Positions 7,359-32,144 of a stretch of 32,253 nt of DNA are shown piece by piece. The DNA is from Gemmatimonadales bacterium (GTDB lineage Bacteria; Gemmatimonadota; Gemmatimonadetes; Gemmatimonadales; Gemmatimonadaceae), in contig JBBQDE010000001.1 in NCBI GenBank assembly GCA_038319425.1, forward strand, positions 1-32,253. The letters are read 5' to 3'. The notes beneath the pieces were generated by a model, which saw nothing but the letters and a program-made list of their open reading frames with translations, did no database searches and was not told the origin of the DNA. Positions within the stretch are counted from its first letter, which is position 1. Every line of letters begins with the position of its first letter. A program made the translations under genes and the position numbers.

Positions 7359-7850
7359 ATGCTCACGTCGCCGCGCTACGCTTCCACTCGACTTCTCCTG
7401 ACGGCGCTCGGCTTGTCGTATCTCGTTGGCTGCCCGGCGGCGGCGCCGATCTCGCCGGCCGACGCGCCGACCGACGCGGCGGTGCCAACTGCTCTCCGCT
7501 CCGAGCTGGCTTTCACCTCGGTGCTGGCGAAGCCGCCCATGCAGGACACCGCACGCGTGGCGGCGGTGCCGGCCGGCATGGCAGTCCTGGGCCTGTTGAA
7601 CCAGACGGCCCCTTGTTTCTCGCTCGCCTCCGCCGCGACAAAGGCCGGTGCGCTCATCGTGGTGCGCCTGACGGCCACGGAGGTGCAGGGGACATGCAAC
7701 ACCTTTGCGGCGGGGGCGTTCGACTACGACGTCGGCGTGACGGGAATGCCGGCCGGTACCTACGACGTGGACGTCCTGCATCGCGTCGTGTTCAAGGACG
7801 GGCGGGTCGCCGAGTCGAGGGTGGGCGCCAGGCGCGTCGAGGTGAGATAG
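7359..7850 (+). CDS. Small lipoprotein of unknown function
   Basis: ATG 7359 lies inside track ORF 6873..7850, whose upstream part is antisense to the oxidase gene. Signal peptide with lipobox LSYLVG|C. The mature part is beta-rich. High GC3. Confidence 0.6.
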   Translation: MLTSPRYASTRLLLTALGLSYLVGCPAAAPISPADAPTDAAVPTALRSELAFTSVLAKPPMQDTARVAAVPAGMAVLGLLNQTAPCFSLASAATKAGALIVVRLTATEVQGTCNTFAAGAFDYDVGVTGMPAGTYDVDVLHRVVFKDGRVAESRVGARRVEVR

Positions 7851-7865
7851 GGCGGGCATCCCGCC
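7851..7865 (+). terminator. Short GC hairpin (GGCGGG-cat-CCCGCC) followed by a T-rich tract
   Basis: Starts immediately after the TAG stop at 7848-7850 and is followed by tctcttcggttta. The stem is only 6 bp. Confidence 0.3.
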
Positions 7866-7887
7866 TCTCTTCGGTTTATCTTCAGGG

Positions 7888-10443
7888 GTGCCGCGCCCTG
7901 CTCCCAAACCGCCGTCCATCTCGCGACTCGCCACGCCCGCGACGGCGGCGATGCGCGCCGCCATCCGCCTCGCGGGCGGTCGCGAGGTGTGCTTCGTCAG
8001 CACCCTGGACGAATCCGGCGTGGTGCAGACGGCGCGCGTGGTAGCGCGGGGTGACGTGGCGAGCGTGCTGGCGCTGCCCGGCTTTGCGCGACGCGGCGAG
8101 ATGTTGCTGCACAACCATCCGTCCGGATTGCTCGAGCCTTCGGGGGCGGACTACGACGTGGCCGCGCGCATGCACGACGACGGCATCGGCTTCGGCATCG
8201 TGGACAACGACGCGCGTGCGCTGTACGTCGTGGTGGAGGTGCCACGCGCCGACACGAAGATTCGGCTCGACCCCGAGGCGGTGGCCCACGACCTTGGGCC
8301 CGATGGCCCGATCGCGCTCCAGCACGCGCGCTACGAGGACCGCGAGAGCCAGCGCGCGATGGCCGCTGCCATCGCGCGGGTCTACAACGACGGCGGGGTC
8401 GGCCTGCTCGAGGCGGGTACTGGCGTCGGCAAGTCACTCGGCTACCTGGTGCCGGCGCTGCGTTGGGCGGCGGCGAACGGCGAGCGCACCGTGGTGTCGA
8501 CCAACACCATCAACCTGCAGGAACAGCTCGTCGGCAAGGATCTCCCCTTCCTCGCCAAGGCGCTGGGCGACCAGAAGGTGCGCTTCGCGCTGCTGAAGGG
8601 ATGGCGCAACTACCTGTGCAAAGCGCGGCTGGAGCAGGCGAGTGGCGGCGCGGCGCAGCTGTTCGACGACGGCATGGCCAGCGAGCTGGCGACGCTGGCG
8701 GCGTGGGCCGAGCGCACGAGCGACGGCTCGCTCGCCGACCTGCCGACGCCGCCGCGGCCCGAGGTGTGGGACGAGGTGTCGGCCGAGGGCGACATCTGCA
8801 CGCGGATGAAGTGCCCGCATTTCGACCAGTGCTTCGTGTTCAAGGCTCGCCGGGCTGCGGCGCAGGCGGATGTGATCGTGGTGAACCACCACCTGCTGCT
8901 CTCCGACCTCGCCGTGCGGCGCGCGGCGCAGAACTGGGACGACGCCGCGGTGCTGCCGGCGTACGGCCGGCTCGTGGTGGACGAGGGACACCATCTCGAG
9001 GATGCCGCCGCCACGCACCTGGGCGCGACGGTGACCCGGCGCGGGCTCCAGCGCCTCGTGAGCCGCCTGGATCGGCGCGGCCGGGGGCTGCTCCCGGCCC
9101 TCGTGATGCGGCTGTCCGCGAGCAACGATCTGTTGAGCACCGCGAGCCTGGACCTGCTCGAGGCCCGACTCGCGCCGTCGGTGAGCGCGATGAGCCGGAA
9201 GAGCGCGCTCCTGTTCGACCTGCTCGACACCTTCATCGAGCAGGAGGGGCAGTCCGTCGTGCGGCTGTCGCAGAGCTTCGCGACGCACGCCATCTGGAAG
9301 GCGGGGCTCACGCTCGCGCTCGAGGACACACTCGGGGAGATCGACCTGCTCGGCGAAGGGTTGCGGCTCGTGCGGGAGCGGATCGAGGGGAGCACGAAGC
9401 TCGATGAACAGCTCGCACCGCTGCTGAACGAGATGCGCTCGGTGACGAAGCGCCTCCAGACGGCGGGCGACGGGCTGCGCCGCGCGCTCACGCCGCCACC
9501 TGATGACGATAGCGTGCGCTGGATCGAAGTGCGCGGGCGCGAGCGCAGCGTCGCGGTGTCATCCGTGCCGCTCGATCTCGCGCCGATCCTGCGCGAGGAC
9601 CTGTTCAAGCGGCTCGACAGCACGATCGTCACGAGCGCGACGCTTACTGCGTCGCGCGGCGACATCGCGTCCGACGCGCGGCGGTTCGACTTCCTCGCCG
9701 CGCGCCTGGGGCTCGACGATCCGGAGCTGCATCCGACGACCGCGGTGTTCCCGTCGCCGTTCTCCTACGACACCCAGTCGCTGCTTGTGATCCCGAGCGA
9801 CATCCCGGCGCCGAACGTGGACGCCGACGGGCACCGGAACGCGGTGACGCGGATCGTGCTCGACGTGGCGGAGGCATCGGACGGCGGCCTGTTCGTGCTC
9901 TTCACGAGCCACCGGGAGGTGCGGCAGCTGGCGAACGCGCTGCGGGCGCGGGGCATCGAGCGGCGCTGGCCGCTGCTCGTGCACGGCGACGAGGGACGCG
10001 ATGCGCTGTTGGCCCGCTTCCGCGAGTCGGGACGCGCCATCCTGCTCGGCACCGCGTCGTTCTGGGAGGGGGTGGACGTGCCCGGCGAGGCGCTGCGCGG
10101 GTTGGTGATCGCCAAGCTGCCGTTTCGTGTGCCCACCGAGCCCGTGACGGCTGCGCAGTGCGAGGCGATCGTCGCCCGTGGAGGCGACGCGTTCGCCGAA
10201 TACATGCTGCCGCACGCATCGCTCCGGCTGAAGCAGGGCTTTGGTCGGCTCATCCGCTCCAGCACCGACCGGGGCGTGGTCGTGATCGGCGATCCGCGCA
10301 TCGTGACGAAGCGGTACGGACGAGGGTTGCTCGAGGCGCTGCCGCCGGCGCGACGGGTCATCGGGCGATGGGCCACCATCGCGGAGCGGGTGCGGGCGTT
10401 CTATTCCGACATCGCCGTGCCGGTGGGCGACGTTGAGCGATAG
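7888..10443 (+). CDS. dinG: DinG/XPD-family Fe-S DNA helicase with an N-terminal RadC-like JAB/MPN+ domain
   Basis: 851-aa ORF starting at GTG 7888, with an alternative ATG at 7951. Residues 30-120 carry a complete JAMM signature, H-N-H-PSGLLEP-S-GA-D (nt 8110-8151), preceded by acidic GREV/DESG. From about residue 165: motif I EAGTGVGKS, a four-Cys pattern (WRNYLCKA, then C-x4-C-x5-C in ICTRMKCPHFDQC), motif II VVDEGHHLED, and C-terminal motifs TSATL, LLGTASFWEGVDVPG and QGFGRLIRS. Confidence 0.9.
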   Translation: MPRPAPKPPSISRLATPATAAMRAAIRLAGGREVCFVSTLDESGVVQTARVVARGDVASVLALPGFARRGEMLLHNHPSGLLEPSGADYDVAARMHDDGIGFGIVDNDARALYVVVEVPRADTKIRLDPEAVAHDLGPDGPIALQHARYEDRESQRAMAAAIARVYNDGGVGLLEAGTGVGKSLGYLVPALRWAAANGERTVVSTNTINLQEQLVGKDLPFLAKALGDQKVRFALLKGWRNYLCKARLEQASGGAAQLFDDGMASELATLAAWAERTSDGSLADLPTPPRPEVWDEVSAEGDICTRMKCPHFDQCFVFKARRAAAQADVIVVNHHLLLSDLAVRRAAQNWDDAAVLPAYGRLVVDEGHHLEDAAATHLGATVTRRGLQRLVSRLDRRGRGLLPALVMRLSASNDLLSTASLDLLEARLAPSVSAMSRKSALLFDLLDTFIEQEGQSVVRLSQSFATHAIWKAGLTLALEDTLGEIDLLGEGLRLVRERIEGSTKLDEQLAPLLNEMRSVTKRLQTAGDGLRRALTPPPDDDSVRWIEVRGRERSVAVSSVPLDLAPILREDLFKRLDSTIVTSATLTASRGDIASDARRFDFLAARLGLDDPELHPTTAVFPSPFSYDTQSLLVIPSDIPAPNVDADGHRNAVTRIVLDVAEASDGGLFVLFTSHREVRQLANALRARGIERRWPLLVHGDEGRDALLARFRESGRAILLGTASFWEGVDVPGEALRGLVIAKLPFRVPTEPVTAAQCEAIVARGGDAFAEYMLPHASLRLKQGFGRLIRSSTDRGVVVIGDPRIVTKRYGRGLLEALPPARRVIGRWATIAERVRAFYSDIAVPVGDVER

Positions 10444-13379: not shown

Positions 13380-14048
13380 TCAACTTACCAGCTCCGCATC
13401 CGCGGTCGTAGGCAGGATGGGTTGGACGTTCGATTCCATGAACGGCCGGAAGACGCCGCAGACCACGCCAAGCACGGCGAAGTCTTCCTTCGGTCCCACT
13501 TCGATCGCGCGGTCGGCCTCGTTGGCCGGCTCGAGGACAATTGTGCCGCCGCGATGCGTGAGCGTCTTGATCGTGGCTTCCTCACCTAGGCGCGCGGCGA
13601 CGATGTCGCCATCCTTGGCGCGCGTGGAGGGCGACACGAGCACGTAGTCGCTGTCAAAGATGCCGCGGCCGATCATCGAGTCTCCCTTGATGCGCAGGAA
13701 GAACACGTCGTCCGTCGGAAGGAAGCGGCGGTCCATCGTGAGGTAGCCCACGCGGTGATCCGGGAGCAGCGCTGGCTCGCCGGCGTGCACGCGCCCGTAG
13801 TACGGCACCGGCTGCGTGCTGGCCTGGCCGGCGTAGCCAACGATGCGCACGCCGCGCGAACGCGACTGATCGCGTTCGATGAAGCCCTTTAGCGAGAGCG
13901 ACGCGAGCAGGTCGGAGACCGTCTTCGTCGACTTGATGCGAAACTTCTTCGCGATCTCGCGGATGCTGGGCTGGTAGGTGTTCTCCGCCAGGAAGTCGAT
14001 CAGGTAGTGATACACCCGTCGCTCGAGGGGAGTGAGTGGCTCCGTCAT
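13380..14048 (-). CDS. lexA: LexA repressor (S24 peptidase family)
   Basis: N-terminal winged HTH (PSIREIAKKFRIKSTKTVSDLLASLSLKGFIER). Ala-Gly cleavage site in GRVHAGEP. Catalytic Ser in GDSM and Lys in EATIKTL. 222 aa. Confidence 0.92.
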   Translation of the reverse strand: MTEPLTPLERRVYHYLIDFLAENTYQPSIREIAKKFRIKSTKTVSDLLASLSLKGFIERDQSRSRGVRIVGYAGQASTQPVPYYGRVHAGEPALLPDHRVGYLTMDRRFLPTDDVFFLRIKGDSMIGRGIFDSDYVLVSPSTRAKDGDIVAARLGEEATIKTLTHRGGTIVLEPANEADRAIEVGPKEDFAVLGVVCGVFRPFMESNVQPILPTTADAELVS

Positions 14049-14117
14049 ACATCCTCACCGGCAGTTGTACGCCGGGCGTCGATACCGCTCGACCCCGAAG
14101 TGAGCAACTTTGGCGCT

Positions 14118-14145
14118 AATGTAGCTCCAATATGGAAAGCCGCAA
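14118..14145 (-). promoter_or_regulatory. Candidate sigma-70-type promoter for lexA
   Basis: On the minus strand: TTGCGG, a 16-nt spacer, then TACATT. The -10 element lies 70 nt upstream of the lexA ATG. This is pattern matching only. Confidence 0.3.
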
Positions 14146-14172: not shown

Positions 14173-15636
14173 TCACGCGCCGGGCGAGTCGCCGAGGCGG
14201 GCGATTGCCGCGTCGAGGCGCAGGATCGCTCGCTCGCGCCCCAGCATCAGCAGCACGTCGAAGATGCCTGGACTGACGCCCAGCCCCGTGAGCGCCACGC
14301 GGAGGGGCTGAAAGATCCTGCCCGCCTTCTCGCCGAAGCCGAAACGCTCCGCCAGCATGCGGAGCGCCTCCTCCATCGCGGCGGGCTCCCACGGCGACAG
14401 CGGCGCGAGGGCGTCGCGCACGGCGGCGAGCAGCTCGGCCGTCGCCGGCCGGTCCTTCCACTGCTTGGCCACCGCGTCGGCGTCGTAGCTGATCTCGTCG
14501 AGGAAAAAGGGACCCGCCTGGCGCACGATGTCGTCAATCGTGCGGGCTCGCACCTTGAGCAGGTCGAGCAGCGCGAGATACCAGTCGGGGCGCGACGCGA
14601 GGTCCGCGGCAGTCGTGAACCCGGCTGCCTCGAGCGCCGGCGTCACGATCGCGGCCAGGTCGGCCGACGGCACGAGGCTGAGGTGCTGACCGTTCATCCA
14701 CTCGAGCTTCTTCGGATCGAAGATCGCGGCCTTCTTCTGGAGGCCGGCGGGGTCGAACAGCTCGACCATGCGCGGCAGCGTCATGACCTCGATGTCATGC
14801 CCGGGCGACCAGCCGAGCAGCGCGAGGAAGTTGAGCATCGCACCGGGGAGGATGCCGAGGTGCTGATAGTCGCCGACGGCGGTCGCGCCGTGGCGCTTGC
14901 TCAGCTTCTTGCCGTCCAGCCCGTGAATCATCGGCAGGTGCGCGAACCGCGGGAGCGGCTCGCCGAGAGCGCGGTAGAGCAGGATCTGCTTCGGCGTGTT
15001 GGAGATGTGGTCGTCGCCGCGCATGACGAGCGTGATGCGCATGAAGATGTCGTCGCTCACAACGGCCATGTTGTAGATCGGCGTGCCGTCGGCGCGGAGG
15101 ATGATGAAGTCCTCGATGTCCTTGTTCGGAAACGCGATCTCGCTGTGCACCAGGTCGTCCCACGACGTCGTGCCGTCGGGCACGCGGAATCGCAGTGTGA
15201 ACGGCTCGCCGGCGGCAACGCGGCGCTCCACCTCGGAGGGGGCGAGTCGGTCGCACCGGCGGTCGTACTTGAAACTGTCCTTGCTCGCCTCGGCGGCGGC
15301 GCGGCGCTCGGCCAGCTCGGCCTGCGCGCAGAAGCAGCGGTAGGCCGTGCCGTTCGCCAGCATCCGGTAGGCGTCGTCGCGATTGCGTTCGGCGTTCGCG
15401 CCCTGGTAGACGACCTCCTCGTCCCAGAGGAGGCCGAGCCACTCGAGGCCGTCGAAGATGGCGCGGGTGCTCTCGTCGGTGGAGCGCGCCTTGTCGGTGT
15501 CCTCGATGCGGAGCAGGAACTGGCCGCCGAACTTCTTCACGTACAGCCAGTTGAACAGGGCCGTGCGCGCGCCGCCGACGTGCAGATAGCCGGTGGGCGA
15601 GGGAGCGAAGCGGAGGCGCGGGACGGGAGCGGCCAT
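14173..15636 (-). CDS. gltX: Glutamate--tRNA ligase
   Basis: 487 aa. HIGH-type motif PSPTGYLHVGGARTALFN, LRIEDTD, and KMSKS-type motif KLSKRHG. Confidence 0.95.
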   Translation of the reverse strand: MAAPVPRLRFAPSPTGYLHVGGARTALFNWLYVKKFGGQFLLRIEDTDKARSTDESTRAIFDGLEWLGLLWDEEVVYQGANAERNRDDAYRMLANGTAYRCFCAQAELAERRAAAEASKDSFKYDRRCDRLAPSEVERRVAAGEPFTLRFRVPDGTTSWDDLVHSEIAFPNKDIEDFIILRADGTPIYNMAVVSDDIFMRITLVMRGDDHISNTPKQILLYRALGEPLPRFAHLPMIHGLDGKKLSKRHGATAVGDYQHLGILPGAMLNFLALLGWSPGHDIEVMTLPRMVELFDPAGLQKKAAIFDPKKLEWMNGQHLSLVPSADLAAIVTPALEAAGFTTAADLASRPDWYLALLDLLKVRARTIDDIVRQAGPFFLDEISYDADAVAKQWKDRPATAELLAAVRDALAPLSPWEPAAMEEALRMLAERFGFGEKAGRIFQPLRVALTGLGVSPGIFDVLLMLGRERAILRLDAAIARLGDSPGA

Positions 15637-15695: not shown

Positions 15696-15699
15696 GGAG

Positions 15700-15789
15700 C
15701 GGAGAGAGAGGGATTCGAACCCTCGATAGAGGTTGACCCCCTATGCCGGTTTAGCAAACCGGTGCCTTCAGCCTCTCGGCCATCTCTCC
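15700..15789 (-). tRNA. tRNA-Ser (anticodon GCU), class II with a long variable arm
   Basis: The reverse complement folds by hand: acceptor GGAGAGA/TCTCTCC, anticodon stem CCGGT/ACCGG with loop TTGCTAA, a long variable arm, T-arm GAGGG-TTCGAAT-CCCTC, and discriminator G. CCA is not encoded. Confidence 0.9.
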
Positions 15790-15882
15790 AGAGGCGCCGC
15801 GTGCTGCGGCCAGGGCGGAATGTAACCGCCCGCGCGCGACGGGAGCAACCGGCGGGGTCGGTCGCGCGGCGCGGCCAACGAG

Positions 15883-15965
<83 letters not shown>

Positions 15966-16245: not shown

Positions 16246-17322
16246 TCAGAGGTCCGGCCGCAGCGGATCGGTGCCCGCCGAGAGCTGCGCTGGCGGCGAG
16301 CCGGCCGCGGATGGCGACGAGGAAGGCCCAGGCTGACGCGGCGCCGGATTGCTGTTGCTGCGCGTCAACAGCTCGCGCAAGCCACCGAGCGCGCCCATCA
16401 CCCCAGTCGCTTCGGCCGGCAGGAAGATCGTCGTGCCGGCGCCCTCGGTGATCTTGGGCAGGGCCTCGAGGTACTTGAGGCCGAGGAGGTACATGGCCGC
16501 CTGGCCCTCGGGCAGCGCGGCGGAGATCCTCACGAGCGCGTCGGCCTCGGCTTCGGCCATCGCCGTGCGCGCGGTCGCGAGCCCCTGTGCGCGCAGGATC
16601 GCCGCGTCCTTCTCACCCTCCGCGCGGCGCACCTGGGATTCGCGCACGCCCTCCGCCTCGAGAATAGCGGCACGCTTGCCCGCCTCGGCGTTCGTGACCG
16701 CCGCGCGGCGCTCGCGCTCGGCGCGCATCTGCAGCTCCATCGACTGCTGAATGTCGCGCGGCGGCTCGATCGCCTGGAGCTCGACGCGGGTGAGGTCGAC
16801 GCCCCAGCCAATCGCGGCCTCCTCGATCACCTCGCGCATCCGCGTGTTGATCGCATCGCGGCTGGCGAGCGTGGAGTCGAGCTCCATCTCGCCGACGATG
16901 TTGCGCAGCGTCGTCTTGGTCAGCGTCTCGAGCGCGTACGGGAGGTTCTGCACCGCGTAGGTGGCCTTCTGCGGATCGGCCACGCGATAGTAGACGACGG
17001 CGTCGATGTCGATCGTGACGTTGTCCTTGGTGATGACCGGTTGGCTCGGGAAGTTGAGCACCTGCTCGCGGAGGTCGATGCGATTGGTCGACCCGGCGGT
17101 CACCTTCTTCGTGCCGCCGGGGTCCACCTGGAAGTAGCGCACGTCGATGGACTTCGGCCGCTCGATGTAGGGGACAAGGATGTTGAGGCCGGATCGGGCG
17201 ACGCGGTGGAAGCGGCCGAGCCGCTCGATCACCATCACCTCCGCCTGGCCGATGATCTTGAACGAGGCACGCGCCACTGCGACCAGCAGGGCGACGATGA
17301 TCGCGGCAATTGCGAGACCCAT
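16246..17322 (-). CDS. SPFH/band-7 (stomatin/paraslipin-like) membrane protein
   Basis: N-terminal TM helix, then the SPFH core (VMVIERLGRFHRVARSGLNILVPYIERP, VITKDNV, YYRVADPQKATY). This is followed by an Ala/Glu/Arg coiled coil and a Pro/Ser-rich tail. ATG 17322 has GGAG 5 nt upstream. The track start GTG 17328 is 2 codons longer. Confidence 0.88.
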   Translation of the reverse strand: MGLAIAAIIVALLVAVARASFKIIGQAEVMVIERLGRFHRVARSGLNILVPYIERPKSIDVRYFQVDPGGTKKVTAGSTNRIDLREQVLNFPSQPVITKDNVTIDIDAVVYYRVADPQKATYAVQNLPYALETLTKTTLRNIVGEMELDSTLASRDAINTRMREVIEEAAIGWGVDLTRVELQAIEPPRDIQQSMELQMRAERERRAAVTNAEAGKRAAILEAEGVRESQVRRAEGEKDAAILRAQGLATARTAMAEAEADALVRISAALPEGQAAMYLLGLKYLEALPKITEGAGTTIFLPAEATGVMGALGGLRELLTRSNSNPAPRQPGPSSSPSAAGSPPAQLSAGTDPLRPDL

Positions 17323-17471
17323 GACCACTCCGTCGAGGACTGAGAGATGTTACCGCCGGGTCGGGATGGGGGCAACGCTGACGGAGTCAGACCAGGCGGC
17401 GCAGCCAGAGGGCGATCGCCGATGAGCGTCGTCGCGACGCTCTCACCAACATGGAAGTCTCTCCGGCACGA

Positions 17472-19539: not shown

Positions 19540-20796
19540 CTAGCGACTGGCCGGGGTGGACGACGTGACGGCCGCGAATACCCTGCCGTCATCCGGACCG
19601 CTCACGTGGAGCATGCCGAGCGCTCCCTTGTTGAAGGCGCGGAAGATCGAGTGGTCCACGAGAATGAGGTCGCCGGACTTCTCGACGCCGAACTCGACGA
19701 TCGCGGATCCGCCGGCGGGGATGAGGGTAGTCTGGACATTGTGCTGTGTCGCCACGCTGCCGCCCTCCGAGTACACGTTGTCGAACACCTCGCCGATGAC
19801 ATGGAAGGAGCTGGTAAGGTTCGGGCCCGCGTCGCCGACGAACAGGCGAACGCGCTCGCCGACTTTCGCCTGGAGCGCGTGGTCGCCGGTGAGCGCACCG
19901 ACGCTGCCGTTGAACACCACGTAGGTGGGCTTCTCGTCGATGCCCTTCTCCATGTCGAGCGACTGCATGCCCGGGTCGCCGAACTTGCCCGTCGTGTAGA
20001 ACTCGCTCTGCATGACGTAGAACTCGTGGTCGACCTTCGGCAGGCCAGCCCTGGGCTCGACGAGGATCATGCCGTACATCCCGTTGGCCATGTGCATCGG
20101 CACGGGCGAGGTGGCGCAGTGGTAGATGAAGAGGCCTGGATTCATGGCGGAGAAGGTGAAGACCGACTCGTGCCCGGGCAGGGTGAGGGATGCGTGCGCT
20201 CCGCCACCGGGGCCGGTGACGGCATGCAGGTCGATGTTGTGGGGCATCGTGCTGTTCGCCGCGTTCTTCAGGTGGAGCTCGACGAGGTCGCCTTCGCGCA
20301 CGCGAATGAAGGTGCCCGGCACCGAGCCGCCAAAGGTCCACATCGTGTACTGGACGCCGTCGGCGAGACGCATCGCCTTCTCCGTCACCTCGAGATTGAC
20401 GATGACGCGCGTGGCGTGGGTGCGCGTGATGGGCGCCGGCACGTTTGGCGCCGTCGTGAGGACCGCGATCTCCTGCCCGACGATCTTGCCGGACGGGGAG
20501 TGAATCGGCACCACCTGCACCGCATTGAGCTCGGAGGCGTCGGCGGGCATGCCGCAGCCGCCGAGGCTTGCGGCGAGCAGCGCGGCAGCGGCCAGGGCGA
20601 ACGCGAGCCGGATGCGATCACCGCGCGTCACCGCCGCGAGCGAGCGAGGCTCGAGTGGATCGCGCCGAACCAACGGGATCGCCCTGTGAGCGTACATCAG
20701 CTCGGCTGGAGTTGGAGCGAGAGGCACGCGTGCATCATTTTCGGCGTCGAGCAGATATCTGGCGTAGTGCGCGCTATCGGACGTGGAATTGGACAC
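19540..20796 (-). CDS. nirK: Copper-containing nitrite reductase NirK, lipoprotein (AniA-like) type
   Basis: HNIDLHAV supplies a T1 His, the catalytic Asp and a T2 His. [20 protein letters not shown] supplies a T2 His plus T1 C-x7-H-x4-M. Also HVIGEVFD and LVDHS. Lipobox LAASLGG|C. The coordinates give the longest ORF (GTG 20796). The first 55 codons have depressed GC3, and GTG 20631 would give a canonical 26-aa lipoprotein signal peptide, so the true start may be 20631 or ATG 20697. Confidence 0.92.
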
Positions 20797-21637: not shown

Positions 21638-22612
21638 ATGTCCACCGATCTTGCCGTCGCTCCCCAGCTTGCCAGCGAGCCGATGCCGCGCGTTCCGCGC
21701 TCGCTCTTCGGGCGCGTGGTGCTGCTGGCCACGGACGGCTCAGCCGCCTCCAACGCGGCAACACGCACCGCGTTTGCGATCGCCGAGCGGCACGGCGCGA
21801 ACGTTCACGTCATCAACGTGATCGACACCCGCTCGGCACCGCTCCCGCCCGGGCTCGACCTCGCGATCGGCATCGCCGATGCCGCCGTCGGCCCGCTGGT
21901 GCATGCCGAGCAGGTCGAGTCGGTGCGCGACGACATCGCGGCCGCCATCGGCGAACCGGTCGACTGGCGGATCCGCGTCGCGCTCGGCACGCCGGCGCGG
22001 GTGATCGTGCAAGAGGCGCACCGACTGCGCGCTGCGCTGGTGATCGTGGGCCTGCGGCGGCATGGACGACTCGAGCGTGCGATGCAGGATGAGACGGCGC
22101 TCGAGGTAATGCGCCGAGCAGCGTGTCCAGTGCTGGGCGTCGCCGCGGACGCCACCGCACTGCCGATCAAGGTGCTCGCTGCGGTGGACTTCAGCCGCTC
22201 GAGTCTGGCGGCAGCCCGCGCCACGCGCGCGGTGCTGGACGATGGCGGCACGATCGTGCTTGCCTACGCACCTCCAGTGACGTTCGCTCTCCCCGATGAT
22301 GGCGAGGCGGTGATTCACAAGCTCGGCGTCGCGGCCGGCTTCGCGCGCTGTCGCGCCGAGCTCGAGGGCGATCGTATCACGATCGATCAGATCACGTTGC
22401 ACGCCCAGTCCTCCACGCCGGTAGCGGCGGCGCTGCTCGAGTACGCCGATGGCGCCCGGTGCGATCTGATTGCGGCCGGCAGCGCGCGACGCGGGCGGCT
22501 GGATCGCTGGATGTTGGGGAGCGTGAGCACGGACCTGGTGCGCGACGGTCGGCATTCCGTGCTGATCGTCCCACCGCGGACGCTCAAGAATGCCGTGACG
22601 CCAACACCCTAG
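21638..22612 (+). CDS. Tandem universal stress protein (two UspA domains)
   Basis: AGGAGG lies 5 nt upstream of the ATG. Domain 1: VVLLATDGSAASNAA...ALVIVGLRRHGRLERAMQDETALEVMRRAACPVLGV. Domain 2: KVLAAVDFSRSS...DLIAAGSARRGRLDRWMLGSVSTDLVRDGRHSVLIVPP. Confidence 0.9.
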   Translation: MSTDLAVAPQLASEPMPRVPRSLFGRVVLLATDGSAASNAATRTAFAIAERHGANVHVINVIDTRSAPLPPGLDLAIGIADAAVGPLVHAEQVESVRDDIAAAIGEPVDWRIRVALGTPARVIVQEAHRLRAALVIVGLRRHGRLERAMQDETALEVMRRAACPVLGVAADATALPIKVLAAVDFSRSSLAAARATRAVLDDGGTIVLAYAPPVTFALPDDGEAVIHKLGVAAGFARCRAELEGDRITIDQITLHAQSSTPVAAALLEYADGARCDLIAAGSARRGRLDRWMLGSVSTDLVRDGRHSVLIVPPRTLKNAVTPTP

Positions 22613-27897: not shown

Positions 27898-28036
27898 GCA
27901 CGCGGCCTAGACGCTGTCGGCACGAGCGGACCATGAAAAGACGACGATGCCGTCGGGCGTGATGCCGTCAGGCAAAGCGGGACAGGCGCGCTACGGCGTC
28001 CCGGGTATCGTTGATGTGGCACTGACGGAGGAAAAG

Positions 28037-28978
28037 ATGCGAAGGATTTTAATTGCGACGCATGGTGGCGTATCGGCCGACGGCGCCGTGCGCGTCGCCA
28101 ACGATCTGGCGAAGAAGCTCGGCACGACATTGAGCGCGTTCTGCGTCGTGGAACCGCTTCCGATTATCGACGCGGGATTCGGGGTGCCGTACGTGGAGAC
28201 GCCTGAACTCGAGGAGGCGCGGCGACATGCGTTGCGCGCGGGCGTCGCGGCGCAGCTGGCGCGGTGCGGGGTAACCGCCCCCATCCGAACGACAATGGGA
28301 TCCGCGGCGACGGAAATCGCCGCCGCCGCACGGAGCGCCGGCGCGGAGTTGATCGTGCTCGGCATCGGACCGCATAAATTGCTCGACCGCGCGCTCGGCC
28401 ACGAGACGGCGCTCCAGCTTGTACAGAGCGCCAGCACGCCTGTGCTGGCCGTCGCGGCCGGTGCCGTCGCCGCGCCGGGCCACGTGCTCGTAGCGATGGA
28501 TTTCTCACCGACGAGTTTTCTGAGCGCGCGCATGATCGCGCGCTGGATGCGTGCCGGCGACACGTTTCATGTGGTGCACGTGGCGCACTTCCGTGACAAC
28601 CCGATGCACGGCGAGCTCGATCAGGTGCGCGCGACCGCGGCGCTCGCCAGATCGCTCGACGCCATCGTTGCCGATCTCGCGATCCAGGACGGCGTGATCG
28701 TGGGAACGACGGTCGTCGTCGGCGAGCCGGCGCAAATGGTGCTCGAACTCGCCGTCCGGGTAGGCGCGGACCTGGTCGCGACCGGAAGTCACGGCTATGG
28801 CATCTGGAAACGACTCACGTTGGGCAGCGTCGCATCGAAGATCCTGCGGCTCTCCTCGCAGTCGGTCCTCGTGACGCCGATCGGCAGTCTTGGAACGCTT
28901 GAGCTCACCGCGCCGACTGTCGCGTCGGTTCCGCGTCCCGTCTCGCGCGAGGACGCCCGCGTGAGCACGGTAGCATAA
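28037..28978 (+). CDS. Tandem universal stress protein (two UspA domains), paralog of 21638..22612
   Basis: ATG 28037 has GGAGG 6 nt upstream; the track start at 27947 is 30 codons longer. Domain 1: RILIATHGGVSADGAVRVA...ELIVLGIGPHKLLDRALGHETALQLVQSASTPVLAV. Domain 2: HVLVAMDFSPTS...DLVATGSHGYGIWKRLTLGSVASKILRLSSQSVLVTP. Confidence 0.9.
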   Translation: MRRILIATHGGVSADGAVRVANDLAKKLGTTLSAFCVVEPLPIIDAGFGVPYVETPELEEARRHALRAGVAAQLARCGVTAPIRTTMGSAATEIAAAARSAGAELIVLGIGPHKLLDRALGHETALQLVQSASTPVLAVAAGAVAAPGHVLVAMDFSPTSFLSARMIARWMRAGDTFHVVHVAHFRDNPMHGELDQVRATAALARSLDAIVADLAIQDGVIVGTTVVVGEPAQMVLELAVRVGADLVATGSHGYGIWKRLTLGSVASKILRLSSQSVLVTPIGSLGTLELTAPTVASVPRPVSREDARVSTVA

Positions 28979-29965: not shown

Positions 29966-30926
29966 TCAGCGGCTCGCGCGCAGCGCGTTCAGGATCACGG
30001 CAACGTCAATTGCTTCCTGCAACAGGGCGCCCACGGTCGGGGGAATCATCCCCACGCCGGCGAACCCCATCGCGATGCCGCTCAGTACGAGGCCGGCCCA
30101 GATGCTCTCCCGCGCGAGTCGGGCGGTGCGCCGTCCGATGGCGACGGCATCGCCGACGCGCTCCAGCTGGTCCGACAGGATGATGACGTCGGCCGCCTCG
30201 CTGGTGATGCCGCCACCGTGGCCAGCCAACGCAATGCCGACGTGCGCGGCGCTCAGGGCCGGCGCGTCGTTGGTCCCGTCGCCTACCATGAGGACCACCT
30301 CCCCGTCGCGCACGAGCTGTTCCACGGCCGCGACCTTGTCCGAGTTTCGTCCCGACATGGGCGGCGATCGGGACCGGCTCGCCGGTGAGCGAGGATGCAT
30401 CCACGTCGGAGCTTCCATCGACGACGATGCCGTCGCAGGGCACGAGCTCGCCTGGCCGGAGCAGCAGCGTGTCGCCGATCGCCACGGCGTCCGCGTCAAC
30501 ATCCTCGATGCCACCAGGGAGCGCGCGGTGCGCATGGCGAGGGGCCGCGGCTTCGAGGTCACGCACGGCGGCCGACGCGCGACCTTCCGCATACCGCTCG
30601 AGCGCTTCACCCCCCGTCTGCATCACGACGATCACCAGACCGGGCAGCGGCTCGCGCAGCACGACCGCGGCAATGACCGCCGCGGCGGCGACGAGATCGG
30701 TGGCGAAGCGCCCGTGTCGAGCCGCGACCAGCATTTCCCATACGATCGGCGCCCCGAGCACCACCAGCGCCGCTAGCCACCCCCGCGCCACCCCGTCGCC
30801 GTACCCAGCGACCCGAGCAGCGGCGCCGGCGACGATCGCGAGGACGGCCAGCGCAGGAACGATGGCTTGCCGCCAGACGATCGAACCGCGTGCCCGCGCC
30901 GCGCCGGGCACGGACGCGCGAGTCAT
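29966..30926 (-). pseudogene. P1B-type heavy-metal P-type ATPase with a large internal deletion and a frameshift
   Basis: The N-part, in the frame of ORF 30006..30926, has TM helices and the start of the actuator domain ([36 protein letters not shown]). About 30 nt later, in another frame (ORF 29966..30610), the sequence jumps to the end of the P-domain ([37 protein letters not shown]...AADVIIL) and the last two TM helices. The CPx helix, the DKTGT phosphorylation site and the whole N-domain (about 300 aa) are missing. The junction is near 30345-30360. Confidence 0.7.
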
Positions 30927-31391: not shown

Positions 31392-32144
31392 TCATTGTGC
31401 CTGGAGCAGACCCAGTCGCAGGCAGAGCTGCACGTAGTCCGCTCGATGTGACAGCCCCATCTTCTCGGTGATGCGCTGCTTGTACGTTTCCACCGTCTTG
31501 GGGCTGATGAACAGCTTCTCGCCGATCTCGGAGGCGGAGTATCCGCCCGCGACGAGCACCAGGACATCGCGCTCGCGCTCACTCAGCGCCTGATAACGTT
31601 CGCGCTCCACGGCGTGCTCCGAGCGGCGGGACATGGCCCGTGCGAGCGCGAGCGACGCCGACGGCTGGACGTAGACGTCGCCCGACGCGACGGCACGAAT
31701 GGCATCCGCCAGCTCGCGATCCGCGGCGTTCTTCACGAGATAGCCGGCGGCGCCGGCCTCGAGCAGGGTCACGAGGTACTCGTCCTCGGTGTGCATCGTG
31801 AGGATGAGGACGCGCGTGGCCGAATGCGTCGCGACGAGCTGCTTCGTCGCGGTGAGCCCGTCCATCAGCGGCATGTCGAGGTCCATCACGGCGACGTGCG
31901 GGGTGAGCCGCTCGATCAACGACACCGCGTCGCGGCCGTTGGTCGCCTCACCGACGACCTGGATGTCCTTCGTCGCGCCGATGAGGGCCTTCAGGCCGGC
32001 GCGCACGACGAGATGATCGTCGGCGAGCACGACGCGGATGATGTCGGGCGGGGACACGGGTGGCATGCGCGAGGCGGGCCAGGGGCTCGGTGACGGAGCG
32101 GCGCCAGTCAAGCGCGCCGCTCCGGGAGTGGTCGTCCCCTTCAT
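31392..32144 (-). CDS. NarL/FixJ-family response regulator, paralog of 29152..29931
   Basis: REC domain: IRVVLADDH, VMDLDMP, LILT, GYLVK. HTH domain: LSERERDVLVLVAGGYSASEIGEKLFISPKTVETYKQRITEKMGL. ATG 32144 lies 1 nt after the multicopper-oxidase stop (coupled). An alternative ATG is at 32066. Confidence 0.88.
   Translation of the reverse strand: MKGTTTPGAARLTGAAPSPSPWPASRMPPVSPPDIIRVVLADDHLVVRAGLKALIGATKDIQVVGEATNGRDAVSLIERLTPHVAVMDLDMPLMDGLTATKQLVATHSATRVLILTMHTEDEYLVTLLEAGAAGYLVKNAADRELADAIRAVASGDVYVQPSASLALARAMSRRSEHAVERERYQALSERERDVLVLVAGGYSASEIGEKLFISPKTVETYKQRITEKMGLSHRADYVQLCLRLGLLQAQ

Follow-up and report, generated by a model that had tools for sequence, protein, structure and literature searches.

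Introduction

What does a RadC-type JAB domain do when it is carried, in a single polypeptide, by a DNA helicase? The question is raised by a gene of a soil or sediment Gemmatimonadaceae bacterium, which lies in a stretch of 32,253 nucleotides (the window) and which joins an N-terminal JAB/MPN+ domain to an Fe-S helicase of the DinG/YoaA kind. [quoted passage not shown]

The architecture is already known; it was described in 2011 and named in 2025. Iyer, Zhang, Rogozin and Aravind reported, from five lineages, DinG/RAD3 helicases to which a RadC-JAB domain is fused, and noted that closely related DinG helicases bear a 3'-5' exonuclease or a RadC-JAB domain at the same N-terminal place (Iyer et al., 2011; PMC3239186). 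From this displacement of one domain by the other they argued for a role in DNA repair, possibly as a nuclease (PMC3239186). A 2025 review defined a 'RadC-like DinG' subgroup (its section 3.8), with the Desulfuromonas soudanensis protein A0A0M4DKS9 as exemplar, and presented an AlphaFold 3 model in which a metalloprotease-like fold was remarked (PMC11981726). In this subgroup the RadC-like domain has conserved E, two H and D residues as its putative catalytic centre, and the subgroup was assigned to the orders Desulfuromonadales, Brachyspirales, Ca. Brocadiales, Spirochaetales and Acanthopleuribacterales, while Gemmatimonadales were placed under plain DinG (PMC11981726). Both works are without experiments on the fusion (PMC3239186, PMC11981726), and in the literature on RadC/JAB biochemistry and on bacterial DNA–protein crosslinks we found no experiments on RadC-like DinG. 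As the fusion was recognised as a clue in both 2011 and 2025, the window adds no new concept. A preliminary description of this gene had called the biochemistry of RadC unresolved, and the review agrees (PMC11981726).

The gene and its start

The open reading frame runs from 7888 to 10443 on the forward strand of the window DNA and encodes 851 amino acids, with a GTG start codon and a stop codon at 10441–10443. The gene, the stretch before it and its N-terminal tail are as follows.

7888..10443, + strand: whole gene, RadC-like JAB domain plus DinG/YoaA-like Fe-S helicase (motifs; Pfam; a single tblastn HSP over both parts in 33 other species)
7851..7885, + strand: non-coding stretch 5' of the gene, with a hairpin and the CTTCGGTTTATCTTCAG element
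7888..7950, + strand: Pro/Ala-rich N-terminal tail, aa 1–21, with 'PAPKPPS.SRLA' (kept in homologues; the ATG of relative locus L001 is aligned)

The preliminary description had placed the JAB domain and the helicase in one ORF, and this was borne out: the junction from JAB to helicase contains neither a stop nor a change of frame, the closest in-frame stop 5' of the ORF is a TGA at 7843, and each of the 33 relatives spans both parts in one HSP. One possible objection is that the fusion is an artefact of annotation, with two separate products or with a true start 3' of the JAB domain. Such a reading could draw on the published Gemmatimonas aurantiaca DinG, which begins at the equivalent of window aa about 134, and on the in-frame GTG codons that the linker contains. 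When the published N-terminal fragment of G. aurantiaca was searched against proteins, the hits were short metagenomic fragments only, with no named entry among them. Yet the codon bias is uniform, with a codon-position GC of 0.75/0.46/0.88 in the JAB part that equals that of the helicase part, and the JAB part is under strong purifying selection (dN/dS of 0.06 against L001 and 0.19 against L002). In 33 species the two parts run on without a break, and the ATG of L001 aligns with the window GTG at 7888. An additional internal start would, moreover, leave the fused product in place. We therefore regard an artefact as very unlikely.

Homologues keep the N-terminal tail as 'RPAPKPPS.SRLA', and residues 11–20 of the tail reach a pLDDT of about 89 in the full-length predicted model. 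The second candidate start, M22, is excluded as a general start by the Ile that P0045 carries at this position. On the DNA sequence, the JAB domain is part of the predicted product with either candidate start. Upstream of the gene we found, as an inverted repeat, the hairpin GGCGGG-CAT-CCCGCC (7851–7865) with a T-rich tail, followed by the CTTCGGTTTATCTTCAG element (7869–7885), which adjoins the start codon and is also kept in L001. The sequencing runs that contain the gene sequence are DNA metagenomes only, from sediment and soil.

The JAB domain

The domain and its predicted active-site positions are as follows.

7951..8241, + strand: RadC-type JAB/MPN+ domain, aa 22–118 (Pfam PF04002; model; Foldseek; dN/dS)
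7984..7986, + strand: codon of E33, the JAMM general-base glutamate (invariant in 33/33 full-length relatives)
8110..8151, + strand: HNHPSGLLEPSGAD, aa 75–88, with H75, H77, S85 and D88, the predicted zinc ligands plus catalytic Ser (invariant in 33/33)

The JAMM motif E-x(n)-HxH-x7-S-xx-D is formed by E33 together with HNHPSGLLEPSGAD; the HxH-x7-S-xx-D pattern alone arose in 234 of 200,000 shuffles of the protein. The complete RadC-flavour signature that the preliminary description had reported at nt 8110–8151 lies exactly there, and Pfam RadC (PF04002) scores above its gathering threshold of 22.1 bits, with 25.1 bits (E 1.8e-5, aa 31–99) for the whole protein and 31.4 bits (E 1.9e-7) for aa 1–135 alone. 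A profile of the JAB domain searched against the PDB found RadC 2qlc (E 3.8e-7), so that the JAB fold is supported by both profile searches, while phmmer with the domain alone found 2qlc marginally (E 0.052). Structure prediction, which had been proposed as a further check, supports the fold as well: the AlphaFold model of the domain has a pLDDT of 93.4, and its best Foldseek match is RadC 2qlc (probability 1.0), followed by CSN5/Rpn11/BRCC36/AMSH/Sst2/PfJAMM1.

E33, H75, H77, S85 and D88 are invariant in all 33 relatives, which share 33–91% identity; the few apparent exceptions, among them L030 and L031 from fusobacteria and Brachyspira, retain these residues with insertions of 1–5 residues. 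The JAB part is also the most conserved region of the protein, with a mean identity of 48% over the 33 relatives. The domain is minimal (about 97 aa), and obvious ubiquitin-binding insertions are absent.

It shares its JAB subtype (HNHPSG..PS..D) with RadC proper, which is represented by E. coli YicR and by the C-terminal domain of the Chlorobium tepidum protein in 2qlc, to which the domain is closest by both structure and profile. The two have only the JAB domain in common, however, as the window protein scores 21 bits against a cut-off of 180 and 16 bits against 133.85 with the full-length RadC models of NCBIfam (PRK00024 and TIGR00608), which include an HhH region.

The helicase

The remainder of the protein is divided as follows.

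8242..8337, + strand: linker and N-terminal helices of the helicase, aa 119–150 (JAB-less relatives begin here)
8338..9087, + strand: motor domain 1 with inserted Fe-S domain, aa 151–400, approximate borders (Pfam DEAD/DEAD_2; Foldseek 6fwr)
8413..8436, + strand: Walker A AGTGVGKS, aa 176–183 (K182 invariant, 33/33)
8617..8832, + strand: Fe-S ligands C244, C304, C309 and C315 (kept in 31/33, 29/33, 33/33 and 33/33, respectively)
8980..8991, + strand: Walker B / DEAH box DEGH, aa 365–368 (D365, E366 and H368 invariant, 33/33)
9088..9567, + strand: arch domain of long helices, aa 401–560, approximate borders (full-length model)
9568..10440, + strand: motor domain 2, aa 561–851 (Helicase_C_2; aligned to E. 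coli DinG residues 445–688)

The complete DinG-type helicase of the preliminary description was recovered in full, with Walker A, the DEGH box (Walker B), four Cys that lie between these two motifs, and Helicase_C_2 (PF13307; aa 658–820, nt 9859–10347, E 4.8e-46) all present. The JAB-less loci L034–L080 align from query residues about 118–136, and the segment of aa 119–150 is among the least conserved of the protein. The full-length model (pLDDT 87.8, pTM 0.83) shows the four-domain fold of HD1, Fe-S, arch and HD2, in which the arch is built of the helices at 415–534 and has the lowest conservation (21% mean identity); Foldseek matched this model to DinG, CasDinG and XPD.

The closest solved structure is E. 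coli DinG (6fwr/6fws; Foldseek E 3.6e-42, TM 0.75 target-normalised; sequence E 2.6e-43). The identity to it is about 25%, E. coli DinG is without an N-terminal catalytic domain, and the window protein scores 411 with the model NF008729, whose cut-off is 598. The best NCBIfam match is E. coli YoaA (NF053712), with 557.6 bits over aa 135–824, which is below the equivalog cut-off of 680. The two proteins share an Fe-S cluster and an expected 5'-3' helicase core, but YoaA, a helicase of the XPD/Rad3 type, is without a JAB domain and depends on HolC/chi. YoaA, which is the closest characterised helicase, acts at blocked forks, in the removal of 3' chain terminators (PMC4636137, PMC9826845). Organisms with RadC-like DinG are reported to be without HolC (PMC11981726). 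Judging from its family membership, the window helicase would be active in ATP-dependent unwinding and would move in the 5'-3' direction.

Spread of the fusion

With the JAB domain as query, 597 clusters were found among 1.84 billion representatives, and 72 representatives of this JAB clade were sufficiently long for their architecture to be judged. Walker A follows about 102 aa past HxH in 58 of them; the other 14 look like out-of-frame, frameshifted or garbled translations. Among the judged representatives, the JAB clade was thus seen only as the N-terminus of such helicases. The phyletic spread, which the preliminary description had proposed to search, extends to 33 species representatives of at least six phyla in which a tblastn HSP spans JAB domain and helicase in a single frame, the lineages being Gemmatimonadota, Spirochaetota, Desulfuromonadales, Acidobacteriota, Sumerlaeota and Fusobacteria.

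The window JAB domain with its linker is 42% identical over 135 aa (E 5e-30) to the RadC-like DinG of D. soudanensis. With this subgroup the window protein shares the domain order, the HxH at about aa 68–75 with Walker A about 102 aa on, the E/HxH/S/D centre, the 4-Cys Fe-S domain and the YoaA-like core; it differs by its phylum and by its 21-aa Pro/Ala-rich N-terminal tail. ExoDinG of Firmicutes (S. aureus 8zef/9ii8; B. subtilis DinG) resembles the window protein in having an N-terminal catalytic domain and a similar size. The N-terminus of ExoDinG, however, is a DnaQ-like DEDD 3'-5' exonuclease, which has the RNase H fold and no relationship to JAB, and the ExoDinG models PRK08074 and TIGR01407 match the helicase part only, from model positions 251 and 243 and below cut-off. 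The earlier remark that DinG of Firmicutes carries an exonuclease instead is therefore correct, and 8zef/9ii8 are examples.

Genomic context

The gene is surrounded in the window by gltX, lexA, an aminotransferase gene, an FAA hydrolase gene and tRNA-Ser genes, and synteny with housekeeping genes is kept within Gemmatimonadota. We found no cas or mobile genes, no CRISPR arrays or defence genes, and no Ubl, E1 or E2 genes within the 32 kb of the window. Partner genes were looked for by all-against-all clustering of the ORFs of the 33 fusion loci, a test to which shadow ORFs in GC-rich genomes add noise. No neighbour gene was common across phyla among these loci, which suggests that the protein is self-contained.

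The gene lexA lies 3 kb 3' of the JAB-DinG gene, as it does in L001 and L002, and its promoter contains a conserved candidate element, GGnGCTACATTnGCnCC. Nothing upstream of the JAB-DinG gene matches this candidate element, and its window-wide matches are not above chance, so by way of the lexA-promoter element we found no link of the gene to SOS control.

Taken with the motifs and models above, the window protein is, with high confidence, a chromosomal housekeeping RadC-like DinG, in which an intact minimal Zn-JAB/MPN+ domain is set N-terminally on a YoaA/DinG-type 5'-3' Fe-S superfamily-2 helicase.

Discussion

The preliminary description had proposed that the JAB domain acts on a DNA-bound substrate that is delivered by the helicase. 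This is a reasonable suggestion, in keeping with the invariant catalytic residues and the obligatory fusion. Tentatively, we favour a mechanism in which a metallopeptidase coupled to the helicase rids ssDNA of protein obstacles or adducts. The helicase would load onto ssDNA at gaps or stalled forks and translocate 5'-3' until it meets a protein obstacle, which could be tightly bound, covalently crosslinked or a peptide remnant. Cleavage of the obstacle by the tethered JAB domain would follow, through peptidase/isopeptidase chemistry, and the cleared strand would allow replication restart or repair. This chemistry is, as far as we know, common to every JAMM enzyme characterised to date, and a protein obstacle on ssDNA is the substrate that we infer for the JAB domain.

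A narrower and more doubtful proposal, built on analogy, is that JAB-DinG could be a self-contained bacterial machine that repairs DNA–protein crosslinks or clears protein roadblocks, a one-protein analogue of FANCJ plus SPRTN. In that pair a 5'-3' Fe-S helicase of the XPD family presents a protein bound to DNA to a Zn metalloprotease, or unfolds it for that enzyme; likewise, the window helicase might run 5'-3' into an adduct and unfold it while the attached JAB metallopeptidase cuts. FANCJ and SPRTN, however, are two separate, ubiquitin-regulated proteins, and SPRTN is a zincin (SprT), so that the protease parts are non-homologous. The likeness is a working analogy only. Against a peptidase mechanism it counts that E. 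coli radC mutants have normal DNA-damage sensitivity (Attaiech, 2008, as cited in PMC11981726), and there is the nuclease argument of Iyer et al. (PMC3239186), together with the nucleotide-acting enzymes that the deaminase-like fold includes.

The main rival to the peptidase mechanism has the JAB domain act as a metal-dependent nuclease or other nucleic-acid hydrolase that trims the unwound strand, for example at a blocked 3' end, as an equivalent of the ExoDinG exonuclease. The non-homologous displacement of an exonuclease by RadC-JAB at the same N-terminal place of DinG argues for it (PMC3239186), and so do the ExoDinG structures 8zef/9ii8, which show the same overall layout, the role of YoaA at 3' chain terminators, and the placing of JAB within the deaminase-like fold, which probably descends from a nucleotide-binding ancestor (PMC3239186). 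We consider this reading possible, though somewhat unlikely. Another option is that the domain serves a Ubl or another specific protein partner as isopeptidase or processing peptidase (of the Cap3, Bil or SAMP-like kind), or that it processes or regulates its own helicase. This seems improbable, given the lack of Ubl, E1 and E2 genes in the window and of a neighbour conserved across phyla, and the minimal form of the domain with no obvious ubiquitin-binding insertions; its unvarying covalent attachment to a DNA motor points instead to a substrate centred on DNA.

It could also be asked whether the domain is catalytic at all. Fusobacterial versions were described as lacking the zinc ligands, with a DNA-binding role suggested for them (PMC3239186), and MPN- domains are frequent scaffolds in eukaryotes, so that a DNA- or protein-binding pseudo-enzyme that anchors or regulates the helicase can be imagined. 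With E, HxH, S and D invariant in 33/33, and retained with short insertions even in L030 and L031, we hold this to be very improbable. Least credible is a helicase for anti-phage or anti-plasmid defence, of the CasDinG or type IV CRISPR kind. The PADLOC typeIV_DinG models do score up to 446 bits, but they match the generic DinG core, NCBIfam Csf4 (TIGR03117) scores 118 against a cut-off of 400, and the window, with no cas genes, arrays or defence genes, keeps its housekeeping synteny in Gemmatimonadota. The PADLOC matches were accordingly taken as generic DinG similarity and the defence reading was dropped.

What is added here to the published picture is that this JAB clade is seen only fused to helicases, with catalytic residues that are invariant in every relative examined; that no other part of the protein is as well conserved as the JAB domain; and that the fusion occurs in Gemmatimonadota, as a housekeeping chromosomal member in a phylum published as plain DinG. 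Combined, these additions strengthen the case for biochemistry on the RadC-like DinG subgroup. Among the contextual clues that RadC-type JAB domains work on DNA or on DNA-attached targets, their obligatory covalent joining to a DNA motor is the strongest. If the crosslink-repair reading were true, it would show RadC-type JAB domains to be DNA-guided proteases and so disclose an activity that has long been sought.

Domain Organization and Predicted Structure

JAB-DinG is encoded by one open reading frame, exactly as the preliminary description had placed it:

7888-10443, + strand: JAB-DinG fusion ORF, GTG start, 851 amino acids

A script check of the motifs puts the JAMM motif HNHPSGLLEPSGAD at residues 75-88 (nt 8110-8151), in agreement with the position first reported, and finds E33, the glutamate that completes it, together with the Walker A sequence AGTGVGKS (residues 176-183), four cysteines (C244, C304, C309, and C315) and the DEGH box (residues 365-368). 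In shuffles of the fusion protein the bare HxH-x7-S-xx-D pattern appears in only 0.12%. The Pfam model of the RadC-like JAB domain, PF04002, scores 25.1 bits on the whole protein (gathering score 22.1) and 31.4 bits (E 1.9e-7) on residues 1-135 alone; Helicase_C_2 matches at E 4.8e-46, and DEAD and DEAD_2 match too. For the helicase, the nearest NCBIfam model is YoaA with 557.6 bits, which is below its equivalog cut-off of 680, followed by DinG, and among proteins of solved structure the closest in sequence is E. coli DinG (6fwr, E 2.6e-43).

The JAB domain model, built in AlphaFold2 from a 28-sequence alignment, has a mean pLDDT of 93.4. Its first Foldseek match in the PDB is the RadC C-terminal domain (2qlc; E about 4e-5, probability 1.0), followed by the JAB/MPN proteins CSN5, Rpn11, BRCC36, EMC8, AMSH/Sst2, and PfJAMM1. 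A search with a sequence profile built from the domain again recovers 2qlc (E 3.8e-7), along with a weak match to AfJAMM, so that the JAB fold proposed at the outset is backed by profile search, Pfam and structure prediction alike. The nearest structures to the full-length model (pLDDT 87.8, pTM 0.83) are those of E. coli DinG, S. aureus DinG, CasDinG, and XPD.

Distribution and Conservation of the Fusion

Close homologues of JAB-DinG number in the thousands, the best 120 of which are 82-98% identical, 812-876 amino acids long and derived from Gemmatimonadaceae metagenome bins. With the JAB domain alone as query, 597 clusters were found at E <= 1e-3 among 1.84 billion cluster representatives. 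Seventy-two of the listed matches reach at least 125 amino acids beyond HxH and were judged; Walker A lies ~102 amino acids downstream of HxH in 58 of them, and the other 14 are, by their reading, out-of-frame or garbled translations, so that, among the matches listed, this JAB clade is always the N-terminal part of such a helicase.

The phyletic spread, which the preliminary description had proposed to survey, was followed in one scan of GTDB species-representative genomes, where a single tblastn HSP crosses both parts at 33 loci from several phyla: Gemmatimonadota, including Longimicrobiales; Spirochaetota (Treponema, Spirochaeta, and Brachyspira); Desulfuromonadales, Geobacteraceae, and Trichlorobacter; Acidobacteriota, Terriglobia; Sumerlaeota; and Fusobacteria. 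The other loci of the scan are JAB-less relatives that start at query residues about 118-136. Across 33 full-length relatives (33-91% identical), E33, H75, N76, H77, P78, G80, S85, and D88 of the JAB domain and K182, D365, E366, H368, C309, and C315 of the helicase are invariant. Two homologues (P0258 and P0265) and one locus (L033) failed the strict motif pattern; each has a short insertion but lacks none of the catalytic residues. Mean identity is highest in the JAB domain (48%), followed by HD1 (46%), HD2 (42%), and the arch (21%). Neighbour joining on the helicase part gives a rough tree without support values, in which the fused proteins mostly form one broad clade with a few JAB-less sequences nested within it; this suggests a single old fusion plus some losses.

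The JAB and helicase parts share one frame without an intervening stop, and codon-position GC over residues 22-125 (0.75/0.46/0.88) matches the helicase pattern. The dN/dS of the JAB segment is 0.06 and 0.19 against the orthologues of two of the fusion loci, L001 and L002, respectively, as low as or below that of the motor domains. The ATG of L001 aligns to GTG 7888. Since the N-terminal tail 'RPAPKPPS.SRLA' is kept among homologues and M22 is replaced by Ile in one of them, the start is placed at or near 7888 rather than downstream; separate JAB and helicase products are a less likely reading, and an extra internal start beside the one near 7888 may exist, though the fused product would still be made. 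The sequencing runs that hold the sequence are DNA metagenomes only, from sediment and soil.

Genomic Context

The surroundings of JAB-DinG are chromosomal and ordinary. Upstream lie genes for a DUF4175-like protein, a TPR protein, a BBE/FAD oxidase and a small putative lipoprotein, and downstream those for an FAA-hydrolase family protein and an aminotransferase, followed by lexA, gltX, two tRNA-Ser genes and, farther away, SPFH, multicopper oxidase and Usp proteins:

13380-14048, - strand: lexA
14173-15636, - strand: gltX
15699-15965, - strand: two tRNA-Ser genes (anticodons GCT and TGA), adjoining gltX
16246-17328, - strand: SPFH protein
19540-20796, - strand: multicopper oxidase
21638-22612, + strand: tandem-domain universal stress protein
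27947-28978, + strand: tandem-domain universal stress protein
30006-30926, - strand: P-type ATPase fragment
31392-32144, - strand: LuxR-type response regulator

The two tRNA-Ser genes side by side with gltX fit a chromosomal housekeeping region, and the Usp, multicopper oxidase, SPFH, P-type ATPase, and LuxR genes are ordinary stress/metal genes with no apparent link to JAB-DinG. Synteny is held within Gemmatimonadota only and no neighbour gene is common to different phyla, so JAB-DinG appears to function with no operon partner of its own.

The lexA gene, ~3 kb downstream of JAB-DinG on the opposite strand, is likewise downstream in L001 and L002. Its promoter element GGAGCTACATTAGCGCC (14112-14128) has GCTA-N3-TAGC symmetry and is conserved between the window and L001; no similar site was found upstream of the JAB-DinG gene, and matches across the window are not above chance. 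The stretch 7851-7885 follows the putative lipoprotein gene, whose TAG stop is at 7848-7850. It contains a hairpin rich in GC (GGCGGG-CAT-CCCGCC, 7851-7865) that is followed by a T-rich tail, and the element CTTCGGTTTATCTTCAG (7869-7885), kept in L001, which ends 2 nt short of the GTG start; the two may represent a terminator and a promoter, the latter giving an mRNA with little or no leader. Directly upstream of the L001 orthologue (L001:5830-5890) there are short tandem repeats with GATTCACC / GGCTTCACC units, which by alignment are not in the window.

Discussion

JAB-DinG is an obligatory fusion under strong purifying selection, with the catalytic motifs of both modules intact and in a housekeeping context. 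From its membership in the family of DinG, YoaA, and XPD, the helicase would translocate 5'-3' on ssDNA, and the reading that we tentatively favour is that the JAB domain would act as a peptidase that cuts proteins trapped on, or crosslinked to, the strand along which the helicase moves. We favour it because, to our knowledge, every JAMM enzyme characterised so far is a peptidase or isopeptidase with exactly the motif of JAB-DinG, and because the structural neighbours of the JAB model are peptidases. A third reason is that eukaryotes offer a working precedent in another pair of Fe-S helicase and metalloprotease, where FANCJ meets and unfolds a DNA–protein crosslink that SPRTN then cleaves (PMC12279946). 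The main rival, which we consider less probable, is the reading of Iyer et al. (2011; PMC3239186) that the JAB domain is a nuclease. It is supported by the position of the domain, which is that of the exonuclease in ExoDinG (the Firmicute DinG), and by the part that YoaA plays in tolerating the chain terminator AZT.

We give less weight still to readings of the JAB domain as a Ubl-type isopeptidase or a non-catalytic module and to a defence function; no cas, mobile-element or ubiquitin-like system genes lie within the 32-kb window. The PADLOC 'typeIV_DinG (CAS-IV-A associated)' models reach up to 446 bits on JAB-DinG, but these scores reflect the generic DinG core and there are no cas genes nearby, and we reject an identity as type IV CRISPR DinG; Csf4 is rejected as well, its NCBIfam score being far under the cut-off. 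Automatic defence-system annotation could mislabel housekeeping DinG-type genes of this kind.

With 42% identity (E 5e-30) to the N-terminal 135 amino acids of Desulfuromonas soudanensis A0A0M4DKS9, JAB-DinG is, by sequence, a further member of the described RadC-like DinG subgroup. In Table S1 of the review of that subgroup (PMC11981726), Gemmatimonadales (G. aurantiaca C1A7T8) are entered as plain DinG. C1A7T8 begins 'MTLGPYGLVAQAMR' and aligns from residue about 134 of JAB-DinG on with 71% identity (compared stretch 8284-8520, residues about 133-211). Since in P0134, a relative from metagenomes, a JAB domain precedes '...DVTLGPYGLVAQAMR' where C1A7T8 starts 'MTLGPYGLVAQAMR', the published start of C1A7T8 may be an internal GTG, with the JAB domain missed. 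Among the GTDB loci the fusion is found throughout Gemmatimonadota, and an uncultured Gemmatimonas (L011) is one of its carriers. The interpretation first given, of a JAB module acting on a DNA-bound substrate delivered by the helicase, is reasonable but has been published since 2011. The one, small addition to the published record is taxonomic, namely the fused genes in Gemmatimonadota, and the biochemical question that JAB-DinG raises remains testable.
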